Origin: Escherichia coli
GTDB taxonomy: Bacteria; Pseudomonadota; Gammaproteobacteria; Enterobacterales; Enterobacteriaceae
DNA length: 64,000 nucleotides
Direction: 5' to 3' (one strand)
Assembly: GCF_003018235.1 (NCBI RefSeq)
Contig: NZ_CP027437.1
Shown one piece after another: positions 42,025 to 53,505 of the stretch. The translations under genes were made by a program, and so were the position numbers. The stretch's first letter is position 1. Every line of letters begins with the position of its first letter. The notes below the pieces were generated by a model. The model saw only the letters and a program-made list of their open reading frames with translations, made no database searches and was not told where the DNA came from.

Positions 42025-42110
42025 ATATGTCCTTTTATCATTAAACACAACCAACCAATTGATTTAATTAAATAAATCTCACTACAGAAAGTGCCAAAAA
42101 TCGCAAATTG

Positions 42111-42131
42111 ACTACACCATTAACTACACCG
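42111..42131. repeat. 21-bp direct repeat ACTACACCATTAACTACACCG (candidate att core, left copy)
   Basis: Perfect copy at 53485..53505; imperfect similarity continues for ~40 bp to the right of both copies. Confidence 0.7.
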
Positions 42132-42286
42132 TTCGGTGCACTGTATGAAACAACGTGGAACAAATAGACACAAGAAATATATGGGCGGGTAATTTATCTA
42201 TGTGAAAGCGTGCCGACTAATAGGGCGTTAATGTCGATATGGGGATCCCCATATCGGGAACCATACCGGAATTTTTGCCAGGTTAA

Positions 42287-42409
42287 ATGTTAACCGCTGC
42301 CCTGTTAACATTTTTACCAAAAAGGTAGTTAACATTTTTTGCACGCAACCATATGAATCATAAAGACAAAATCAACAACAACGCTTCATCAGGCAGTTAA
42401 CATGTTAAC
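42287..42409. promoter_or_regulatory. Cluster of GTTAACAT / ATGTTAAC half-sites, including the 14-bp palindrome GTTAACATGTTAAC (candidate iterons/operators or packaging site)
   Basis: Motif at 42287..42294, 42304..42311, 42328..42335 and 42396..42409 in a gene-free ~0.8-kb terminal region. Confidence 0.4.
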
Positions 42410-42833
42410 TACTACAAAACGGTAATTTTTTCTCTGCGTGAGAGTGGGCGCGGTGTCCGAATTGTTCGTTGTTCGTGGCTAACCGCTCCCCCCCCTATAC
42501 CGGATTTTTTTCCGGTTAATCTTTAATCAGGCTGGTGGGGGTTACATACCCTTGATCACCGTAATGATGATTCAGGTATGCACCTTTCCCCCCGATGGGG
42601 TAAAAGCATCAACCGTAACGGTAATATCTGCCTTGATGGTCTGCGTGGTCATTATGACCATTCAGCCAATGACCTTAATCAGAATTTTTCGCTAAAAAAT
42701 GATGTTGGCCACGTCGTCCGGAAAGCACAAAATCCCGTCGATTTTTAATTAACGGTTAAACCGCCTTTTTGTCACGGTGTGTCACTGGTTGCCACTCACC
42801 GTCACGATGTCCGCTCGCCTGGCTGTAAATTAA

Positions 42834-42852
42834 ACTACGAAAATTTCGTAGT
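42834..42852. promoter_or_regulatory. 19-bp perfect palindrome ACTACGAAAATTTCGTAGT (followed by GGGACTACAAGTCCC palindrome)
   Basis: Read directly; lies upstream of the left-end hypothetical gene. Confidence 0.4.
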
Positions 42853-42925
42853 TGTGAGGGACTACAAGTCCCGCGCAAATTTCCCCCGGTCCCCTCAAAT
42901 TGAGGTTGCCGGAAATATCAACCAG

Positions 42926-43207
42926 TTACCGCCGTAACCGCTCCAGCTTCTTCCAGTGGTACGTAATTTTCTCTTTCTCCCGGTACATCTCAACGCGGCG
43001 ATTGTAGGCCAGCATTTCCAGAACGCGGATCCGTATGTCGCGCATATCTACATCGTTAAGCTGGATACCATCACGGCGCATCACCTCAGCAACCACACGC
43101 GCATAATTTTCAGCGGTCACGCTGTCCGGCTGCGTTGCCTGTTCGTCAGCCTGCTGGCTGATTCCTGCAACGCGGTGGATTAATCGCAGTATTTCGGCTT
43201 CTGTCAT
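42926..43207 (-). CDS. Hypothetical protein (93 aa)
   Basis: ORF 42926..43219; probable start ATG 43207 (MTEAEILRLIHRVAG...) with G-rich SD. Confidence 0.5.
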   Translation of the reverse strand: MTEAEILRLIHRVAGISQQADEQATQPDSVTAENYARVVAEVMRRDGIQLNDVDMRDIRIRVLEMLAYNRRVEMYREKEKITYHWKKLERLRR

Positions 43208-43241
43208 TGTGCCCCCCATCGTTCTAATCGTCTGGTGTCGT

Positions 43242-43295
43242 CGGGTCCTTCCTGGAATTATGGCCCGTTACGGGGCGGCGACCTCGCGGTTTTTC
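43242..43295. repeat. Inverted repeat, left arm (terminator-like hairpin plus T-run)
   Basis: Reverse complement of 43887..43940; the inner 32 bp are identical. Confidence 0.75.
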
Positions 43296-43521
43296 ACTAT
43301 TTATGAGATTTTTTAGGGGGTGGTTGTTGTTTAATTGTTTGTCATATCTATTTGATAACTAAGTAAAAATAGAGAGCAATACAACAACCTGATAGTGTTT
43401 TTTGATGCTACAAATAAAAAAAATGCTAATTGAATCAAATAGTTTTACAAAAATACGTGGTTGTTGTATTGCGTATTTGATGGCGTAACAGAAAGTGATT
43501 TTGAACTTTGCTGTTCTGTGA

Positions 43522-43731
43522 CTACTGATTGTTCCATGCTGGCGCGGCGAACGCTTCGGCATGACGCCCCCCAGCCAGAAAACCAGCCATTTTATTTCGT
43601 GCTTTGCTCACATCTTCCGGTGAGTAGCCGTAAATCTGTAAACCTTCATTGAATCGATGTTCTGTTTCTTCACTTGAGTACTCGTCGCTCTCCGATGAAA
43701 TCAGCCTGGCAACTTCAGTCTGCGTAGCCAC
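43522..43731 (-). CDS. Hypothetical acidic protein (69 aa)
   Basis: ORF inside the inverted-repeat-bounded cassette, downstream of CATGTCCGG repeats. Confidence 0.4.
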   Translation of the reverse strand: MATQTEVARLISSESDEYSSEETEHRFNEGLQIYGYSPEDVSKARNKMAGFLAGGRHAEAFAAPAWNNQ

Positions 43732-43753
43732 TCCTCACCTCACAATCACGACA

Positions 43754-43860
43754 AAACCGGTCATGTCCGGTTTACATGTCTATTTTTTGCGCATGTCCGG
43801 TTCATGGAAAGCCTATTTTTATATTTTTCATATAGTTAACTTGCAGAGAAACCGGACATG
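43754..43860. promoter_or_regulatory. Three copies of the CATGTCCGGTT(T) motif, including the 20-bp palindrome AAACCGGTCATGTCCGGTTT (candidate operators)
   Basis: 43754..43773, 43792..43806 and 43848..43860 (inverted). Confidence 0.45.
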
Positions 43861-43886
43861 GATCCCGGAAAATTTTCATAAATAGC

Positions 43887-43940
43887 GAAAAACCGCGAGG
43901 TCGCCGCCCCGTAACGGGTCCATATGCCGGAAAGGACCCG
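43887..43940. repeat. Inverted repeat, right arm; acts as minus-strand intrinsic terminator of the capsid operon
   Basis: Hairpins followed (on the minus strand) by a T-run, 30 bp after the stop of the 137-aa gene. Confidence 0.75.
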
Positions 43941-47669: not shown

Positions 47670-47915
47670 AAATTCACCTTCTGTATTTTGTCCTGCTGTT
47701 CGATTTTTATTCATTACTCACCACTCCTCACTTTTACTCCTCACTTTTTAAGTTGCCTCACTTCGTCTCACTTGAGATTTTCGTGTTTTCTATTAATTTG
47801 TTTTATAAGATTTTTTTCACTCCTCACTTTTGAGGATGTATACAGGTGAGAAAGTGAGTAATTGTGTTAATATTTTGTAAAAACCTCACCGTTACTCACT
47901 TTTGCTACTCACTTT

Positions 47916-49325
47916 TTACAGTGGTCCTACATCATCACCATCAATGTAAATCACGGCGTCTTTTTCCAGTTTGGCTAACCATCGCCGCATATTTTTCACG
48001 TCATACCCAAGCCGTTTCATGTCATCACGTAACAGCGCAATAGTGCACTTGTCGCCGTTCTGTGTGCGTGAACGTATGCACCCCCATAGCGCGGTATGGT
48101 TTTCCGTCTTGTTGCCTGCCTCCTCGATGCGCTCCAGTTCAACAGGAGGACGCGGCTTATCCACCACCACCAGCGACGTGATTAATTCGCCGTCAGCGTC
48201 GGTAAAAAGCTCCACTACCCGCAAATCGTAGGCGGCTTCTTTGAGTTCCTCTGCGTCCTTCATTTTTGTGCATGAGATAACCAGGGCTTCGCTTCCTGCG
48301 TCCTCTCTGCGTATCCGGTATTCAGCGTCCAGTGATGCACGGAATGCACTGGAACCACGCGCGCCCTTTGTTTCATCTTTGCCGGAATGGTGAACCACCA
48401 GCACCGTGGACCCTGTGCGTCGTTTCAGTTCGTCACATCCACGGATAAACGCCCCCATGTCACGGGAGTCATTTTCATCATTGCCGCCAAAGCAACGCGC
48501 CAGCGTATCCAGAATAATCATTCGAACAGGTTTACCCGTTTCCCGCTCCACCTGGCTGGCTGCGATAACCATTTCATCAACATCAAGCGGGGCCGCCGGA
48601 AAGACCGGACGGTTTACCAGATACAGATTTTTCACCTGTACATCGTGCACAACCTCCCAGGCTTTTATGCGACGCGGAACGCCTATACCACCTTCACCAA
48701 CCACATAGAGAACAGAACCATGTGCAACCCTGCGGCCTCCCCAGTGGCGGCCCGTTGAAATGTGACACGCCCACGAACCAGCAAGAAACGATTTATAGGA
48801 TCCGCTCGCTCCGTATATGCTGCACAGCGACGCCGCCGGAATAATGCCCTTAACCACGTAATCCAGTTGCGTGTCATATCCGGTAGATCCAACGCTCATC
48901 GGTAGCGTGGTGTTTCGTTGGGGGTTTTTTGCCATTACCAGGCTTTCCCCTCTCTCCCATGTCTCCCGCAACCGTGGTAGCTGGTCGGTCCATTTCTCCA
49001 GCAATTCGAAATTTTCAGAAAGCAGTCGCGCTTCCCTGACTCCGGCAATCGCCAGTTTCGTCGCGATGGTTAGCAACTGCTCTTCGTCAATATTTCCGGC
49101 GCGTATCACTGTGACCCTGTGCCGCCCCTCATCAACAATTTGCAGATTATCCAGTTCGCTTAACTGATAACGGCCCAGGTAAACGGGAGGCGTCGGGTCT
49201 CCCGCCTTTTTGGCCTGTGCAACGATGTAATGCTCTGCAAATGAGTGAGCATCAACACCCGCGAAAATAATCGCGTCGGTGTACTTATCTTTCGGTAATA
49301 GTTTTACGTTCGGTGCCAGTTTCAT
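47916..49325 (-). CDS. Replication protein with RecA-fold (RepA/AAA_25-type) helicase core, Pri-Rep-like
   Basis: 469 aa; Walker A-like GASGSYKS, Walker B-like MIILDTLAR, SGKDETKGARGSSA motif typical of RepA-type helicases of satellites and plasmids. Confidence 0.7.
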   Translation of the reverse strand: MKLAPNVKLLPKDKYTDAIIFAGVDAHSFAEHYIVAQAKKAGDPTPPVYLGRYQLSELDNLQIVDEGRHRVTVIRAGNIDEEQLLTIATKLAIAGVREARLLSENFELLEKWTDQLPRLRETWERGESLVMAKNPQRNTTLPMSVGSTGYDTQLDYVVKGIIPAASLCSIYGASGSYKSFLAGSWACHISTGRHWGGRRVAHGSVLYVVGEGGIGVPRRIKAWEVVHDVQVKNLYLVNRPVFPAAPLDVDEMVIAASQVERETGKPVRMIILDTLARCFGGNDENDSRDMGAFIRGCDELKRRTGSTVLVVHHSGKDETKGARGSSAFRASLDAEYRIRREDAGSEALVISCTKMKDAEELKEAAYDLRVVELFTDADGELITSLVVVDKPRPPVELERIEEAGNKTENHTALWGCIRSRTQNGDKCTIALLRDDMKRLGYDVKNMRRWLAKLEKDAVIYIDGDDVGPL

Positions 49326-49626: not shown

Positions 49627-50109
49627 TTATTCTCCGGTGTGGGGCGTTTTATTCTGTTCGCGTAATAACTCTTTTTCTCTTAAATTGAATTCAGCTACGT
49701 AATCGGCATAATCAGCGGTAATATTCAGTACATCCACTCCCGTTGCTTTATATTCTTTCATACCAAGTAAGAAAAAAGATGCCCTTATCAGTTCCGATAT
49801 TGATGAAAGCGCATCAGTCGCATCATCGGATAATCCTGAAAATTCCTGTTTCAGGGCATTAAAACGATCATCACGCATAACCCCCCCATTTTCACAATCA
49901 GCAATCAGGATAGCTTTGGCCTCATTCAGTGCCATATCAGCGGTAAGCTGTGCGTATGCCAGTGAATGCGGGATTATTGCCCCGGTATATTCCGTCTCTC
50001 TGGTAATGTGTTTTTCTGCGGTTGCTGCCGTGCATGAAATATCAATCAGCGCGTGCATTAGCGTTCTGATAGCTTCGGCGGCTGCGTCCGGACGGATGTT
50101 ATTGCACAT
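49627..50109 (-). CDS. Hypothetical protein (160 aa)
   Basis: ORF in the leftward operon. Confidence 0.45.
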   Translation of the reverse strand: MCNNIRPDAAAEAIRTLMHALIDISCTAATAEKHITRETEYTGAIIPHSLAYAQLTADMALNEAKAILIADCENGGVMRDDRFNALKQEFSGLSDDATDALSSISELIRASFFLLGMKEYKATGVDVLNITADYADYVAEFNLREKELLREQNKTPHTGE

Positions 50110-50716
50110 GTATCACCCCCTGACGAATACGGGCGGCGAATACAGCAACACAACCAGACGGGCAACGGCTACGCGCTTCGCGTTCCGTCCAGGCGGTGAC
50201 GTGGATGATTTGGGATTCTGACGCGCAAAAGATGATAAAGCGCCAGATAAAGGCAGTTTGAGAATGTACGAGGGTAGGGATAGTAGCCATGTTGGCAGCC
50301 TCCTTTATCGTTGGGATAACCCCACCGCCGGAGGTGGTAAGCTCGCTGGCGGTGGACTGTACGGAGTTACCACAACTGGCGATAAAGGAAACCAGCCCGA
50401 CCGAAGTCGGCCCCGTACAGCCCACCATTGTAAAGGTGTGCGTGTGCGCCGATACAAAAAAAGACGCGTGCGGCGTCTGTATCGCCTTTATCTCCAGCGG
50501 GGTGGTAATCCCGGCACCCGTTTTATGAGGTGCACGGGAATCATAGCCATTTCCACCAGTGGCGATCAACTGGTTTTTCTGGCGAGCTTCCTGTTCGCTG
50601 GTGGCCTCAATGGTAATCACGCGCGGTTGTGCCGTGCTCAGGGCGATAAAACGCCAGATGTATTTATTCAGGTTGTACGAGCCCCGCCCTTGCGGGTGTG
50701 TGGTATGATTTCTCAT
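50099..50716 (-). CDS. Uncertain ORF spanning a tandemly duplicated ~0.4-kb module
   Basis: Frame open from ATG 50716 (GAGG SD) to stop 50099; a second SD plus ATG at 50290 inside; DNA-level paralogy between ~50221..50340 and ~50619..50750. Confidence 0.3.
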   Translation of the reverse strand: MRNHTTHPQGRGSYNLNKYIWRFIALSTAQPRVITIEATSEQEARQKNQLIATGGNGYDSRAPHKTGAGITTPLEIKAIQTPHASFFVSAHTHTFTMVGCTGPTSVGLVSFIASCGNSVQSTASELTTSGGGVIPTIKEAANMATIPTLVHSQTAFIWRFIIFCASESQIIHVTAWTEREARSRCPSGCVAVFAARIRQGVIHVQ

Positions 50717-50813
50717 AGCTACCTCGATACTCTGGTTATCGTTGGTGGTTAGACGCCCTGCATGTGTTGCGAGCACTGCGGGGCGTTGCTTAATTTGAGT
50801 AACACCACTCAAA

Positions 50814-50895
50814 CTGTGCGCACAGATTAAAATTATGTATGCGCACACATCAATACTTAACATCTCGTTTTTTTTGCTGTATTGTGTGCGCCCAT
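50814..50895. promoter_or_regulatory. Operator cluster between divergent operons: palindrome CTGTGCGCACAG plus two related TGTGCGC sites
   Basis: 50814..50825 perfect 12-bp palindrome; 50835..50850 near-palindrome; about 50883..50893 third copy. Confidence 0.5.
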
Positions 50896-50921
50896 AAAGT
50901 CCATTTAAGTAAGGTGCATCA

Positions 50922-51119
50922 ATGTCTAGCGGTAACACAAACAACAAATCAGCAAAGAAAAATATTCGATTCCCACATGAGCTTATAGATGGAATTGATG
51001 CCAGCGTTGAACAAGAAAAATTAACTAATCCTAGTGCTAATTTTTCCGCATGGGTCTTGGATGCCTGTGGACGCAAATTAAAATATGAACAGCGCCGCAA
51101 GGCCAAAGAATCAGAATAA
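50922..51119 (+). CDS. Small ribbon-helix-helix-type DNA-binding protein (candidate island repressor)
   Basis: 65 aa; KKNIRFPHELIDGIDA...FSAWVLDACGRKL pattern; divergent from the replication operon. Confidence 0.5.
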   Translation: MSSGNTNNKSAKKNIRFPHELIDGIDASVEQEKLTNPSANFSAWVLDACGRKLKYEQRRKAKESE

Positions 51120-51176
51120 TTACTATCAGCGCCGTGGTGTGAGGTACTCCGGCGCATTGCTTTACAGGTACACACA

Positions 51177-51401
51177 ATGACCAAAGGCACATCATCACCG
51201 GAAAACGGCGAAATTACGCCAACATATGAAATTATCCGGCAAAGGCAGTCAGAAGCCTGCGCCAGACTTGAGGAAGAACTAACCAGAACAAAAATACCAC
51301 CAGCGCCGCGCTTAGCGCCACCAGAAAAATTTGCCCTTGAAGATTTTGTCGAGAAATACCCACGGCGGCTTAAATCTGGTAAAAACCGCCCGCCAGGCTG
51401 A
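51177..51401 (+). CDS. Hypothetical protein (74 aa)
   Basis: ORF downstream of the RHH gene. Confidence 0.4.
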   Translation: MTKGTSSPENGEITPTYEIIRQRQSEACARLEEELTRTKIPPAPRLAPPEKFALEDFVEKYPRRLKSGKNRPPG

Positions 51402-51665
51402 TAGCATTGTCCACCAGCAATAGAACGGTTATCATGCTCTGGCTTATGTTTGGGATCACATACACATAAGGTGCAGCGGGTTAATTGTTCAGAAAGGCGG
51501 TTCCATTTCGGGGCCGCTTTTTTTATGCCTGAAAAACCCCAATTTTGTTGTTTTCCAGTCTCACCAGGGCGAACGAATCCCCGCCCACATTCGGGCGCAT
51601 ATTCAATCTTCATGGTTATATCTCTGTATTAGTGGATGTGTGGCGGCTGCGTGCCGCCAGCGTGA

Positions 51666-51854
51666 TTAATGAACTGCCTTGCAGCTATCCTTCCAGGCCA
51701 GAACCTCGGATAAAGACCAGCCAACGGAACGACCGCCAAGTTTACGACGTGATGGGAATTGTCCGGCCTTTTCCAGGCGGTAGCGGCATGAGCGGCTAAG
51801 GCCTGTTAGCTTTTCGCATTCTTTTTCACGTATAAACCGATCAGTGCTTAACAC
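51666..51854 (-). CDS. AlpA-family excisionase / transcriptional activator
   Basis: 62 aa; LTGLSRSCRYRLEKAGQFPSRRKLGGRSVGWSLSEVLAW matches the AlpA helix-turn-helix pattern. Confidence 0.7.
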   Translation of the reverse strand: MLSTDRFIREKECEKLTGLSRSCRYRLEKAGQFPSRRKLGGRSVGWSLSEVLAWKDSCKAVH

Positions 51855-52228: not shown

Positions 52229-53476
52229 TTATTTTCTTCTGGCTGCTGGTAGTGCGGTTACGTTTTCTTGTGTTCCCGCCAGTATCCCTAACCGCTCCGT
52301 CCACATATCCAGCGCATTGCGTTTAGCATCCAGATAACGGGAATGATTATAAACTCGCTGCATTCCTGGCATCTGGTGGCCTGTAAGCTGCTCCACGACG
52401 TGAGGATCCACGCCTAAATCGTTCAGCATCGTTGTAAAGGTGCGCCGGATGTCATGTAGTGACCAGTGAGGGTGATTTAGCCTCCTGTGCGCTAATCTGC
52501 CGTACTGCGACACGCTTGTTTCCTGTTTCACTTCCCCCAGCAATAAGCCCGTGTTCCTGTTCTGCTCCACCAGCTGCGTGACGAACGGCAGTATTGCTTC
52601 CGGTATGGGCCGGAATATTGCCACCTTCGTTTTGCTGTGTTCTTTCGGCACGGTCCAGAGCATTTCGGTAAAATCCCACTCTCTGATCTCCGATAACCTC
52701 AGTTCTACCGTCCGGCATCCGAACACAATCAGGAGGCGGATTAACGCGATGTAGTAAGGGGAAAATATTTTTTTGTCCAGTGCCTGCAATAATTCGCCCA
52801 GTTCTTTGGTGCTTAAGACACGCTCGCTTATATCCGGTTTTTTCCCAACGTCCGCCACACTCATATCATCAAGAACGTTGCTGATTGCATAGCGCCGCCT
52901 CCTGCAGAACTTAAGCGCCTGTTTGCACGTCTGTAGCAAGAATCCGGCAGTAACAGGCGTTCGCTTTGCCACCTGGTCAAAACAGGCCAGCCAGTGCCGT
53001 AGCTCGCATTTATCCAGCGGCATAGCACCAATGTGCTGTATTACGTGATTATTAAGGCGCTTTTTCAGGGCGGCATAATCCACGCGATTTTCCTTTGCGT
53101 ACGACTCAAGCCAGTAGGTGAGCGCATCGCCAACCGTTACCGGCTTTAACGCTTCCTGTACGGTGTAATTCATTTCATGACGTGGATTTTTCCCCTCTGC
53201 CAGCCATGCGCGACACTGGGCGGCTTTTTCCCTGGCTGATTTCAGGCTCAGATCAGGATAATTTCCCAGCTTAATGCGTTCCGGTGGTGCCCCCCTTCCC
53301 GTTCCGGCCCTGTAAGTGAAATACCAGGTTAAAAGGCCACTGGTTGAATGCCTGACGCTCAGGTTTCCACCGTCATTAAGAAAGGCTGTTTTTTGGGCGG
53401 GTGTGCCGTTGATTTTCCTCAGCTGTGTATCGCTCAGTTTGTTAAGTGCTCTGCTCATAATTTTGATTCCGGTCAT
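52229..53476 (-). CDS. Tyrosine site-specific integrase (P4-type)
   Basis: ORF 52229..53479; R...HxxR...Y catalytic-region motifs (HDIRRTF, GHQMPGMQRVYNHSRY); adjacent to the right repeat. Confidence 0.8.
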   Translation of the reverse strand: MTGIKIMSRALNKLSDTQLRKINGTPAQKTAFLNDGGNLSVRHSTSGLLTWYFTYRAGTGRGAPPERIKLGNYPDLSLKSAREKAAQCRAWLAEGKNPRHEMNYTVQEALKPVTVGDALTYWLESYAKENRVDYAALKKRLNNHVIQHIGAMPLDKCELRHWLACFDQVAKRTPVTAGFLLQTCKQALKFCRRRRYAISNVLDDMSVADVGKKPDISERVLSTKELGELLQALDKKIFSPYYIALIRLLIVFGCRTVELRLSEIREWDFTEMLWTVPKEHSKTKVAIFRPIPEAILPFVTQLVEQNRNTGLLLGEVKQETSVSQYGRLAHRRLNHPHWSLHDIRRTFTTMLNDLGVDPHVVEQLTGHQMPGMQRVYNHSRYLDAKRNALDMWTERLGILAGTQENVTALPAARRK

Positions 53477-53484
53477 CACAATTA

Positions 53485-53505
53485 ACTACACCATTAACTA
53501 CACCG
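53485..53505. repeat. 21-bp direct repeat ACTACACCATTAACTACACCG (candidate att core, right copy)
   Basis: Identical to 42111..42131; preceded by an extra ATTAACTACACC unit. Confidence 0.7.

Follow-up and report, generated by a model that had tools for sequence, protein, structure and literature searches.

Satellites that copy the packaging site of a helper phage are already known, from the Escherichia coli phage-inducible chromosomal island (PICI) EcCICFT073, with cohesive-end (cos) sites of lambda type, and from SaPIbov5 of Staphylococcus aureus, with a cos of HNH type. Quiles-Puchalt et al. 2014 reportedly found that the SaPIbov5 cos was copied from the HNH-dependent phages phi12 and phiSLT and is packaged by the small (TerS) and large (TerL) terminase subunits of the helper together with its HNH endonuclease; SaPIbov5 is said to have this one cos type, whereas the island described here combines two unrelated types. 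EcCICFT073 has two lambda-type cos sites around the gene rppA and is packaged by lambda and phi80, and its published sites consist of the 12-nt cosN GGGCGGCGACCT and a private cosB read by a heterodimer of Rpp and TerS (PMC6092414, PMC6739421). Here we analyze a 64,000-nucleotide stretch of E. coli DNA (contig NZ_CP027437.1 of assembly GCF_003018235.1; hereafter the window), in which a 0.8-kb region, 42132-42925, is the non-coding tail of an 11,373-bp PICI of the EcCICFT073 family inserted at phoQ/roxA. We consider it probable that the GTTAAC-centered repeats of this tail are the cosB of a complete cos site of about 210 bp (42285-42495) derived from HNH-dependent lambdoid phages. What this adds to the known cases is the presence of two unrelated cos types in one island; no E. 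coli PICI with an HNH-type cos came up in our literature search.

The window island resembles EcCICFT073 in family, attachment (att) site, gene order, the possession of helper-type cos sites, the lack of a terminase of its own, and both lambda-type cosN sites. Strain CFT073 holds the published island at the identical att site with the gene order seen in the window, and related islands cover 74-81% of the window island at about 90% identity. The size of the element lies within the family range of about 10-15 kb, att sites flank it, one end carries integrase and AlpA genes, and it has its own initiator and an iteron origin; no terminase, portal or tail gene was seen among its genes. It differs in the cassette that concerns us here, which belongs to an HNH-dependent system with a predicted 10-nt 3' overhang and which EcCICFT073 lacks. 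SaPIbov5 offers a parallel as a satellite with a copied helper cos (PMC6092414), yet it belongs to another host phylum and has no sequence relation to the window cassette.

An original prediction, made from the letters alone, had described 42132-42925 as gene-free, terminal, and dense in GTTAAC repeats and perfect palindromes, and these descriptions were borne out. Five GTTAAC hexamers lie within 121 bp (at 42289, 42304, 42328, 42396 and 42404), compared with 0.07 expected per 125 bp from the window-wide frequency; 20,000 shuffles of 42277-42500 never reached five copies, the maximum being two. The repeats take the forms GTTAACAT (three) and ATGTTAAC (two). Perfect inverted repeats, counted with a stem of at least 6 and a loop of at most 5, number 9 in the region, against 1.26 +/- 1.17 (maximum 6) in 500 dinucleotide shuffles, and a 794-nt tile from 42083 that covers most of the region has the window maximum of 8, the median being 1. 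The individual palindromes are present as claimed: the 14-bp GTTAACATGTTAAC at 42396, nested in a 16-bp perfect palindrome at 42395-42410, the 19-bp ACTACGAAAATTTCGTAGT at 42834, and GGGACTACAAGTCCC at 42858. The claim of CCGG hairpins holds for one copy, the perfect ACCGGA-TTTTT-TCCGGT at 42499-42516, while its counterpart at 42266-42283 is degenerate. Open reading frames (ORFs) in the region reach only 40-56 aa, and the frame of the longest, of 56 aa, is not kept in the CFT073 counterpart when the two are compared by eye. RefSeq annotation of homologous islands places nothing in the matching stretch, and an Rfam scan of the island at E<=1 gave no match in 42132-42925.

Other parts of the original prediction fared differently. 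The suggestion that the pentamer ACTAC links the region to the att repeats carries no meaning, since ACTAC occurs 45 times in the window. The 0.8 kb do not form one feature, being composed of at least three: an att-proximal arm, the cos cassette, and a mosaic palindrome-rich trailer. The proposed cis-acting role survives for the GTTAAC cluster alone and only as a packaging site, on the strength of homology to the cos region of lambdoid phages that encode HNH, TerS and TerL.

This homology is extensive. Positions 42285-42473 (189 bp) match 93 phage records at about 78% identity, and all of the matches inspected, which include BP-4795, an O157:H7 prophage, and Shiga toxin (Stx) phages of the Stx1, Stx2 and related prophage groups, lie between an HNH endonuclease gene and terS. 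This intergenic region is also the one that holds cos in HNH-dependent phages, HK97 among them. The phages from which the cassette probably stems, including BP-4795 and many Stx1 and Stx2 phages, encode an HNH endonuclease, a Terminase_2-type TerS, and a TerL related to those of Bcep176 and phiBt-TXDOH. By homology, the cassette thus falls with the cos sites of HNH-dependent phages of the BP-4795, Bcep176 and phiE125 group.

The pattern of conservation within the cassette is also suggestive of function. A four-way alignment of island and phage cassettes contains just one 1-nt indel, keeping the spacing, and shows no variation in any of the GTTAAC repeats or in the block AAACGGnAATTTTTTCTCTGCGTGAGAGnGGGnGCGGTGTCC. 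When 6 island-type sequences were compared with 65 distinct phage-type sequences, the two consensuses agreed at 95/102 positions (93%) in the elements (repeats, cut-site block and C-run) but at 64/107 (60%) in the spacers (Fisher p = 1e-8), a test that is partly circular, which counts against our interpretation, because boundaries other than those of the hexamer were set after the alignment had been viewed. The hexamer itself was defined beforehand, in the original prediction, and its 30/30 positions are identical between island and phage. These comparisons bear on the possibility that the cassette is a non-functional relic, the scar of a past recombination between an island and a lambdoid prophage, which no longer directs packaging. 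A relic would suit the small number of genomes with the cassette (49 of 5426 complete E. coli genomes, against about 1000 with the surrounding trailer), the indel-like flanking direct repeats, a substitution inside the predicted cohesive end of the window copy, and the mosaic character of the trailer as a whole. Yet at 22% divergence from the phage the substitutions have spared the repeats and the cosN block, and the spacing is kept to 1 nt, whereas decay should strike elements and spacers evenly; we therefore regard a relic as unlikely.

Read as a cos site, the cassette lies on the minus strand, with its terS-proximal side at low coordinates, and conforms to the HNH-dependent type with a 10-nt 3' overhang seen in Bcep176, phiE125 and HK97. 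Its repeats begin with R1 (42285-42294, AAATGTTAAC), which makes up a 10-bp inverted repeat together with R2, the two being 9 bp apart. R2 (42304-42313) and R3 (42328-42337) both read GTTAACATTT and are identical to the phage consensus at 10/10 positions, and R4/R5 (42395-42410) make up the 16-bp perfect palindrome AGTTAACATGTTAACT, identical at 17/18. A cosN-proximal block follows on the minus strand at 42418-42459, with the arrangement AAACGGTAATTTTTTCTCTGCGTGAGAG-TGGGCGCGGT-GTCC and 42/43 identity to the phage consensus over 42418-42460. The cassette closes with a C8 run (42488-42495, minus strand) that is a G-run in phage orientation, lies about 45 nt from the predicted cut, and has a comparable counterpart in all relatives and in HK97; we infer that it is a candidate cosQ-like element.

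A direct repeat of about 25 bp brackets the cassette. The left copy (42263-42279, plus strand, ATACCGGAATTTTTGCC) holds the degenerate CCGG hairpin and is 88% identical to the right copy (42497-42516, plus strand), whose perfect hairpin is terminator-like on the plus strand. CFT073 and a further related island (L241) have one copy of the repeat and no cassette, and comparison by eye with CFT073 indicates that about 234 bp (42280-42496) are missing from EcCICFT073. Because CCGG/T-run direct repeats flank it, the cassette is an indel.

The position of the cut is predicted from phages with known ends. Two Burkholderia phages, one with a related TerL and the other from the same genus, have a cassette-like architecture. 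The first 10 nt of the Bcep176 record recur as its last 10 nt, GGAACGTGCG; this terminal redundancy stands directly after ...TTTTCTGCGCGTGAG / ...AAAATTTTCTGCGCGTGAG and ahead of GTCTAGG and a C-run. The phiE125 record closes with CGCCCGCTTC, 10 nt that are reported to form the 3' single-stranded extension of phi644-2 and to serve as cos site in phiE125 as well (PMC2920897). Both ends align to 42443-42452 of the window, just ahead of an invariant GCGGT. Cleavage here, placed to within about +/-2 nt, would leave a 10-nt cohesive end on the minus strand, reading AGTGGGCGCG on the plus strand and AGGGGGCGCG in the consensus of islands and phages. The 3' overhang of HK97 is also 10 nt long, and HNH stimulates the cut in this phage too. 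Bcep176, phiE125, phi644-2 and HK97 share one order of parts, namely HNH gene, G-run, about 45 nt, 10-nt 3' cohesive end, conserved block, TerS sites and terS. They differ from the window in being phage genomes with terminase genes in cis, whereas the window site stands alone in a satellite.

Other routes to the cut site gave less. The contig ends of 120 IMG/VR loci that carry the 19-mer TTTTTTCTCTGCGTGAGAG from the cosN-proximal block fall at scattered distances from the motif. The records of vB_Pae_CF121c, vB_E354, phi330 and phiBt-TXDOH begin at or within terS, not at a mapped genome end, and were left unused; those of phi330 and phiBt-TXDOH are flagged as circularly permuted. A BLAST search with the cos regions of two high-GC relatives found no match in the phage collection. 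As a side observation, in both HK97 and the BP-4795 group a G-run with GATC after it (GGGGGGGGGATC) stands some 40-50 nt upstream of the cut (L003, 3929-4218; L006, 680-700). The cos regions of the two cannot be aligned apart from this G-run and GATC, which may possibly be a common cosQ-like signal.

A comparison of phages that share the cut-site block bears on the role of the repeats. The loci found with the 19-mer include E. coli prophages, four more islands, and several high-GC phages; in the latter the 19-mer is unchanged and a C-run lies about 50 nt off, while the terS-side repeats differ (GTTCGCA or ATTAACAA). A shared cut block with private terS-side repeats is the modular pattern expected for cos, in which TerL reads the cut site and TerS reads cosB. 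TerL is 58% identical between Bcep176 and BP-4795. The TerS of BP-4795, which has a Terminase_2 N-terminal domain, is 36% identical to that of Bcep176 (E = 3e-22), and the start of the Bcep176 terS gene carries an inverted repeat, TGTTAA-N5-TTAACA. In phiE125, the TerS is unrelated to that of BP-4795 and repeats of TGTTAA type were not seen. Since the repeat motif tracks the TerS type and the cut-site block tracks TerL, we read the GTTAACAT repeats as cosB. They lie on the terS side of the predicted cut, as expected of cosB, and all of them are identical to those of the phage, in apparent agreement with the TerS type of the helper. This arrangement supports a predicted cosB between cut and terS, as in lambda. 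The likeness to the lambda cosB, with its gpNu1 sites R3, R2 and R1, lies in short TerS repeats between cut and terS, some of them inverted; there is no sequence similarity, and the TerS family and the overhang type (a 12-nt cohesive end in lambda) are different. HK97 TerS has a single 15-bp site, compared with four or five repeats in the window cassette.

The same comparison speaks to the idea, raised in the original prediction, that the repeats are an operator array. The dyad symmetry of the GTTAAC palindromes (a 10-bp inverted repeat with a 9-bp spacer, and a 16-bp palindrome) is typical for operators of dimeric helix-turn-helix proteins, and they could bind AlpA, PerC, a ribbon-helix-helix (RHH) protein or a phage late regulator. 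The cassette, however, has no promoter-like site and no gene downstream within the island, the same sites stand upstream of terS in phages without the island regulators, and across relatives a different TerS type goes with a different repeat motif but the same cut-site block. A role as AlpA or PerC operator is further unsupported because only three other GTTAAC hexamers occur in the island. We consider such an array very improbable.

The original prediction also offered a replication origin; the repeats would then be iterons for the RepA-like helicase. In favor of this, the non-coding DNA around the repeats is moderately low in GC (about 41-43%), a second, distant cis site for replication is mentioned for P4 (PMC6092414), and a GTCAC motif repeated four times at 42771-42810 loosely resembles the iteron core CTCAC. 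The island origin is nevertheless found elsewhere, at 47715-47925 (minus strand), where at least 8 iterons (ACTCCTCACTTTT and variants, of CTCACTT type) in both orientations flank an AT-rich core at 33% GC, directly 3' of the RepA-type helicase gene (47916-49325; AAA_25 domain, 9e-42). This layout matches that described for E. coli PICI origins (PMC6092414). The GTTAAC repeats are unlike those iterons, are dyad-symmetric, and lie 5 kb from rep. Both the cassette and the GTCAC block, moreover, are present in an island (L001) with a different, primase-type replication gene. An origin in 42132-42925 is therefore scarcely credible. CFT073, too, has a primase-type initiator at the place of the helicase gene, so replication modules are exchanged within the family.

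If the cassette is a cos site, as we favor, it adds to two lambda-type sites just outside the region, which the original prediction did not notice; exact cosN sites were sought inside 42132-42925 as well, and the only ones stand at 43273 and 43898. The first (43273-43284, plus strand) is an exact GGGCGGCGACCT with an island-specific cosB to its right, made of three GGTTGTTGT repeats in GGTTGTTGT/ACAACAACC forms at 43319-43472, that is unlike the cosB of CFT073 and may serve another Rpp type. Within this cosB, 43376-43389 and 43459-43472 form a perfect 14-bp inverted repeat in a stretch of 28% GC. The second cosN (43898-43909, minus strand) is inverted, with a cosB of three CCGGACATG repeats at about 43740-43890 that matches the cosB with CCGGACAT repeats beside rppA in CFT073 (L002, 8120-8297), itself taken to be the published cos1. 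Between the two sites, a 69-aa ORF (43522-43731, minus strand) retains only residues 78-128 of the 144-aa RppA (51 residues, 92% identity). RppA matches RppC (PDB 6hlk). The N-terminal, DNA-binding-like half of the window protein is gone, and its space (43732-43897) is filled by the cosB with three CCGGACATG repeats. Because rpp is truncated, Rpp-dependent packaging may be impaired in this island, and the HNH-type cos may be the main route in the window copy.

We envision the following sequence of events. A helper would be induced in the same cell, its TerS would bind the GTTAACAT repeats, and its TerL and HNH endonuclease would cut at 42443-42452 to leave 10-nt 3' overhangs, after which packaging of island concatemers would run leftward, starting at 42442 and passing through att into int. 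At this cassette an adaptor protein would be unnecessary because the cosB of the helper has been copied unchanged, and the site would thus provide a second, Rpp-independent packaging route beside the two lambda-type cos sites. From sequence comparison, the island can probably be packaged by two unrelated classes of helper phage.

The combination of sites is not peculiar to the window. Cassette copies of island type, at least 92% identical to that of the window, are the ones present in 49/5426 complete E. coli genomes; a phage-type copy alone occurs in 1233/5426 and either type in 1282/5426, while the whole region of the window was found in none of the 5426. All 6 of the cassette-bearing islands examined, counting that of the window, carry lambda cosN within 1-2 kb, so the combination of two cos types is recurrent.

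Several points weigh against a working cos. Most islands of the family, in about 1000 genomes, are without the cassette, which must therefore be dispensable. Island-type and phage-type copies occur together in 19/49 genomes, a count confounded by clonal genomes; since about 20 of the 49 form one clonal lineage, we do not use this co-occurrence as evidence. The window itself contains no helper prophage of BP-4795/Stx type. The alignment that locates the cut site relies on phages with a TerL of only 58% identity, and at 42445, within the predicted cohesive end, the window copy has T where the other island copies and the phages have G. The literature searched reports no packaging, cleavage or TerS-binding experiment for the cassette or for a cos of the BP-4795 group. 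Finally, capsids with room for about 50-60 kb would have to be filled with multimers of the 11.4-kb genome, something known only for the lambda-type helpers of EcCICFT073. Where multimers are concerned, five copies of the island amount to 56.9 kb, beside a BP-4795 record of 57.9 kb, and four copies to 45.5 kb, about 94% of the lambda genome of about 48.5 kb; we treat both figures as numerology only.

A cassette could also act mainly as a decoy that titrates or misdirects the helper terminase without serving the transfer of the island itself. Interference with helper packaging is characteristic of PICIs (PMC6739421), and an island replicating at high copy number with a perfect cosB would sequester TerS. 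The cassette nevertheless retains a complete cos, with cosB, cut-site block and G-run, which goes beyond what a TerS sink needs. Titration and packaging are in any case compatible, as a concatemer cut at cos leads to packaging. A role as decoy in the main thus seems quite unlikely to us.

If the cassette works as a cos site, a single 11-kb island would be mobilized both by lambda/phi80-type terminases, via Rpp, and by HNH-dependent terminases of BP-4795/Stx type, via cosB mimicry. The helper range of E. coli PICIs would then widen to the prophages that dominate Shiga-toxin-producing strains, and the transfer of satellites would be tied to the induction of Stx phages. Our literature search found no mapped cos for the BP-4795/Stx phage group, and the cassette yields a prediction for it: the cut site, the 10-nt cohesive end, and the GTTAACAT repeats as cosB.

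Beyond the cassette, a mosaic palindrome-rich trailer (42517-42925) extends to the last gene. Its elements are TGGTCATTATGACCA (42646-42660), AACTACGAAAATTTCGTAGTT (42833-42853), GGGACTACAAGTCCC (42858-42872) and CCTCAAATTGAGG (42893-42905), and the 19-bp and 15-bp palindromes belong to it and not to cos. At about 42771-42810, GTCAC/CTCAC occurs four times at a spacing of about 10 bp (TGTCACGGTGTGTCACTGGTTGCCACTCACCGTCACG), an iteron-like pattern that is also present in L007 and is matched by L001. Right behind its stop codon, the last gene is followed by three neighboring hairpins (the 19-bp palindrome, the 15-bp palindrome and CCTCAAATTGAGG), which fold well on either strand, with z = -4.2 and -5.5; a strand test by mismatch type counted 3 G.U against 2 A.C and favored neither strand. 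With low confidence, we suggest that they end or stabilize a late transcript. A LexA box, a site for IHF and an integron attC were considered for the trailer palindromes and set aside by eye for misfit of spacing or consensus.

Trailers in related islands are 298-755 nt long, and parts of the window trailer occur in 279 genomes, none covering 80% of it. We compared window 42517-42925 with L030 (579-1334), L007, L241 and L002 (8655-8960). The perfect palindromes vary in sequence while their flanks are conserved (TTTCCGAAAATATCAACGGGTTAGG is a recurrent flank); GGTCATTATGACC, GGTGATTATCACC and AATCATAATGATT, for example, all stand between GCGT and ATTCAG and differ by matched changes in both arms that keep the dyad symmetry. 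Some related islands have at least 13 perfect inverted repeats (stem at least 6) in the 1.1 kb upstream of the last gene. Since the palindromes differ in sequence while dyad symmetry and flanks are kept, the data suggest selection for a hairpin or cruciform structure. A scan of viral contigs with the 14-mer CCGAAAATATCAAC returned mainly chance matches and just five further islands. It is conceivable, if doubtful, that the tail of this PICI family is a modular adaptor region that collects cos modules from unrelated helpers and also houses an undescribed palindrome-array cis element of satellites. Such an array could have its role in ending packaging, for example, or at the end of the DNA that is first to enter the cell.

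On the other side of the cassette, the region abuts attL (42107-42142), which consists of two copies of ATTrACTACACC and about 12 bp, recurs as attR at 53480-53515, and forms a junction also found in CFT073. The adjoining arm (42143-42262), common to EcCICFT073 in a comparison by eye with CFT073, is presumed to be the attP arm. It holds the 22-bp perfect palindrome CGATATGGGGATCCCCATATCG (42235-42256), near att, which the original prediction overlooked. Island L007 has a symmetric variant of this palindrome, GGTGATCACC, growing to 26 bp, and island L001 a one-sided intermediate, GGGGATCACC.

The remaining gene content is as follows. The last island gene (42926-43219, minus strand) encodes 97 aa without a Pfam family; in EcCICFT073 its counterpart, of 93 aa, is the terminal gene beside phoQ. 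At the opposite end stand a tyrosine integrase gene (52229-53479) and AlpA (51666-51854; Pfam 5e-18). The island further encodes a protein like lambda gpE (Phage_cap_E, 4e-50) and one like gpD (HDPD, 1.9e-17), whose EcCICFT073 counterparts are c1499 and c1500, as well as a DUF3950 protein, a DUF4222 protein, SSB and PerC. The only real Rfam matches in the island, at 50345-50533, are two RNAs above the gathering threshold: a C4 antisense RNA (50345-50432, minus strand; 78 bits, E = 2e-14) and, beside it, isrK (50457-50533, minus strand; 63.5 bits, E = 5.5e-12). The adjoining C4 and isrK are an RNA immunity module of P1/P4 style within a PICI, and a 504-aa ORF that spans them (50099-51613) looks spurious.

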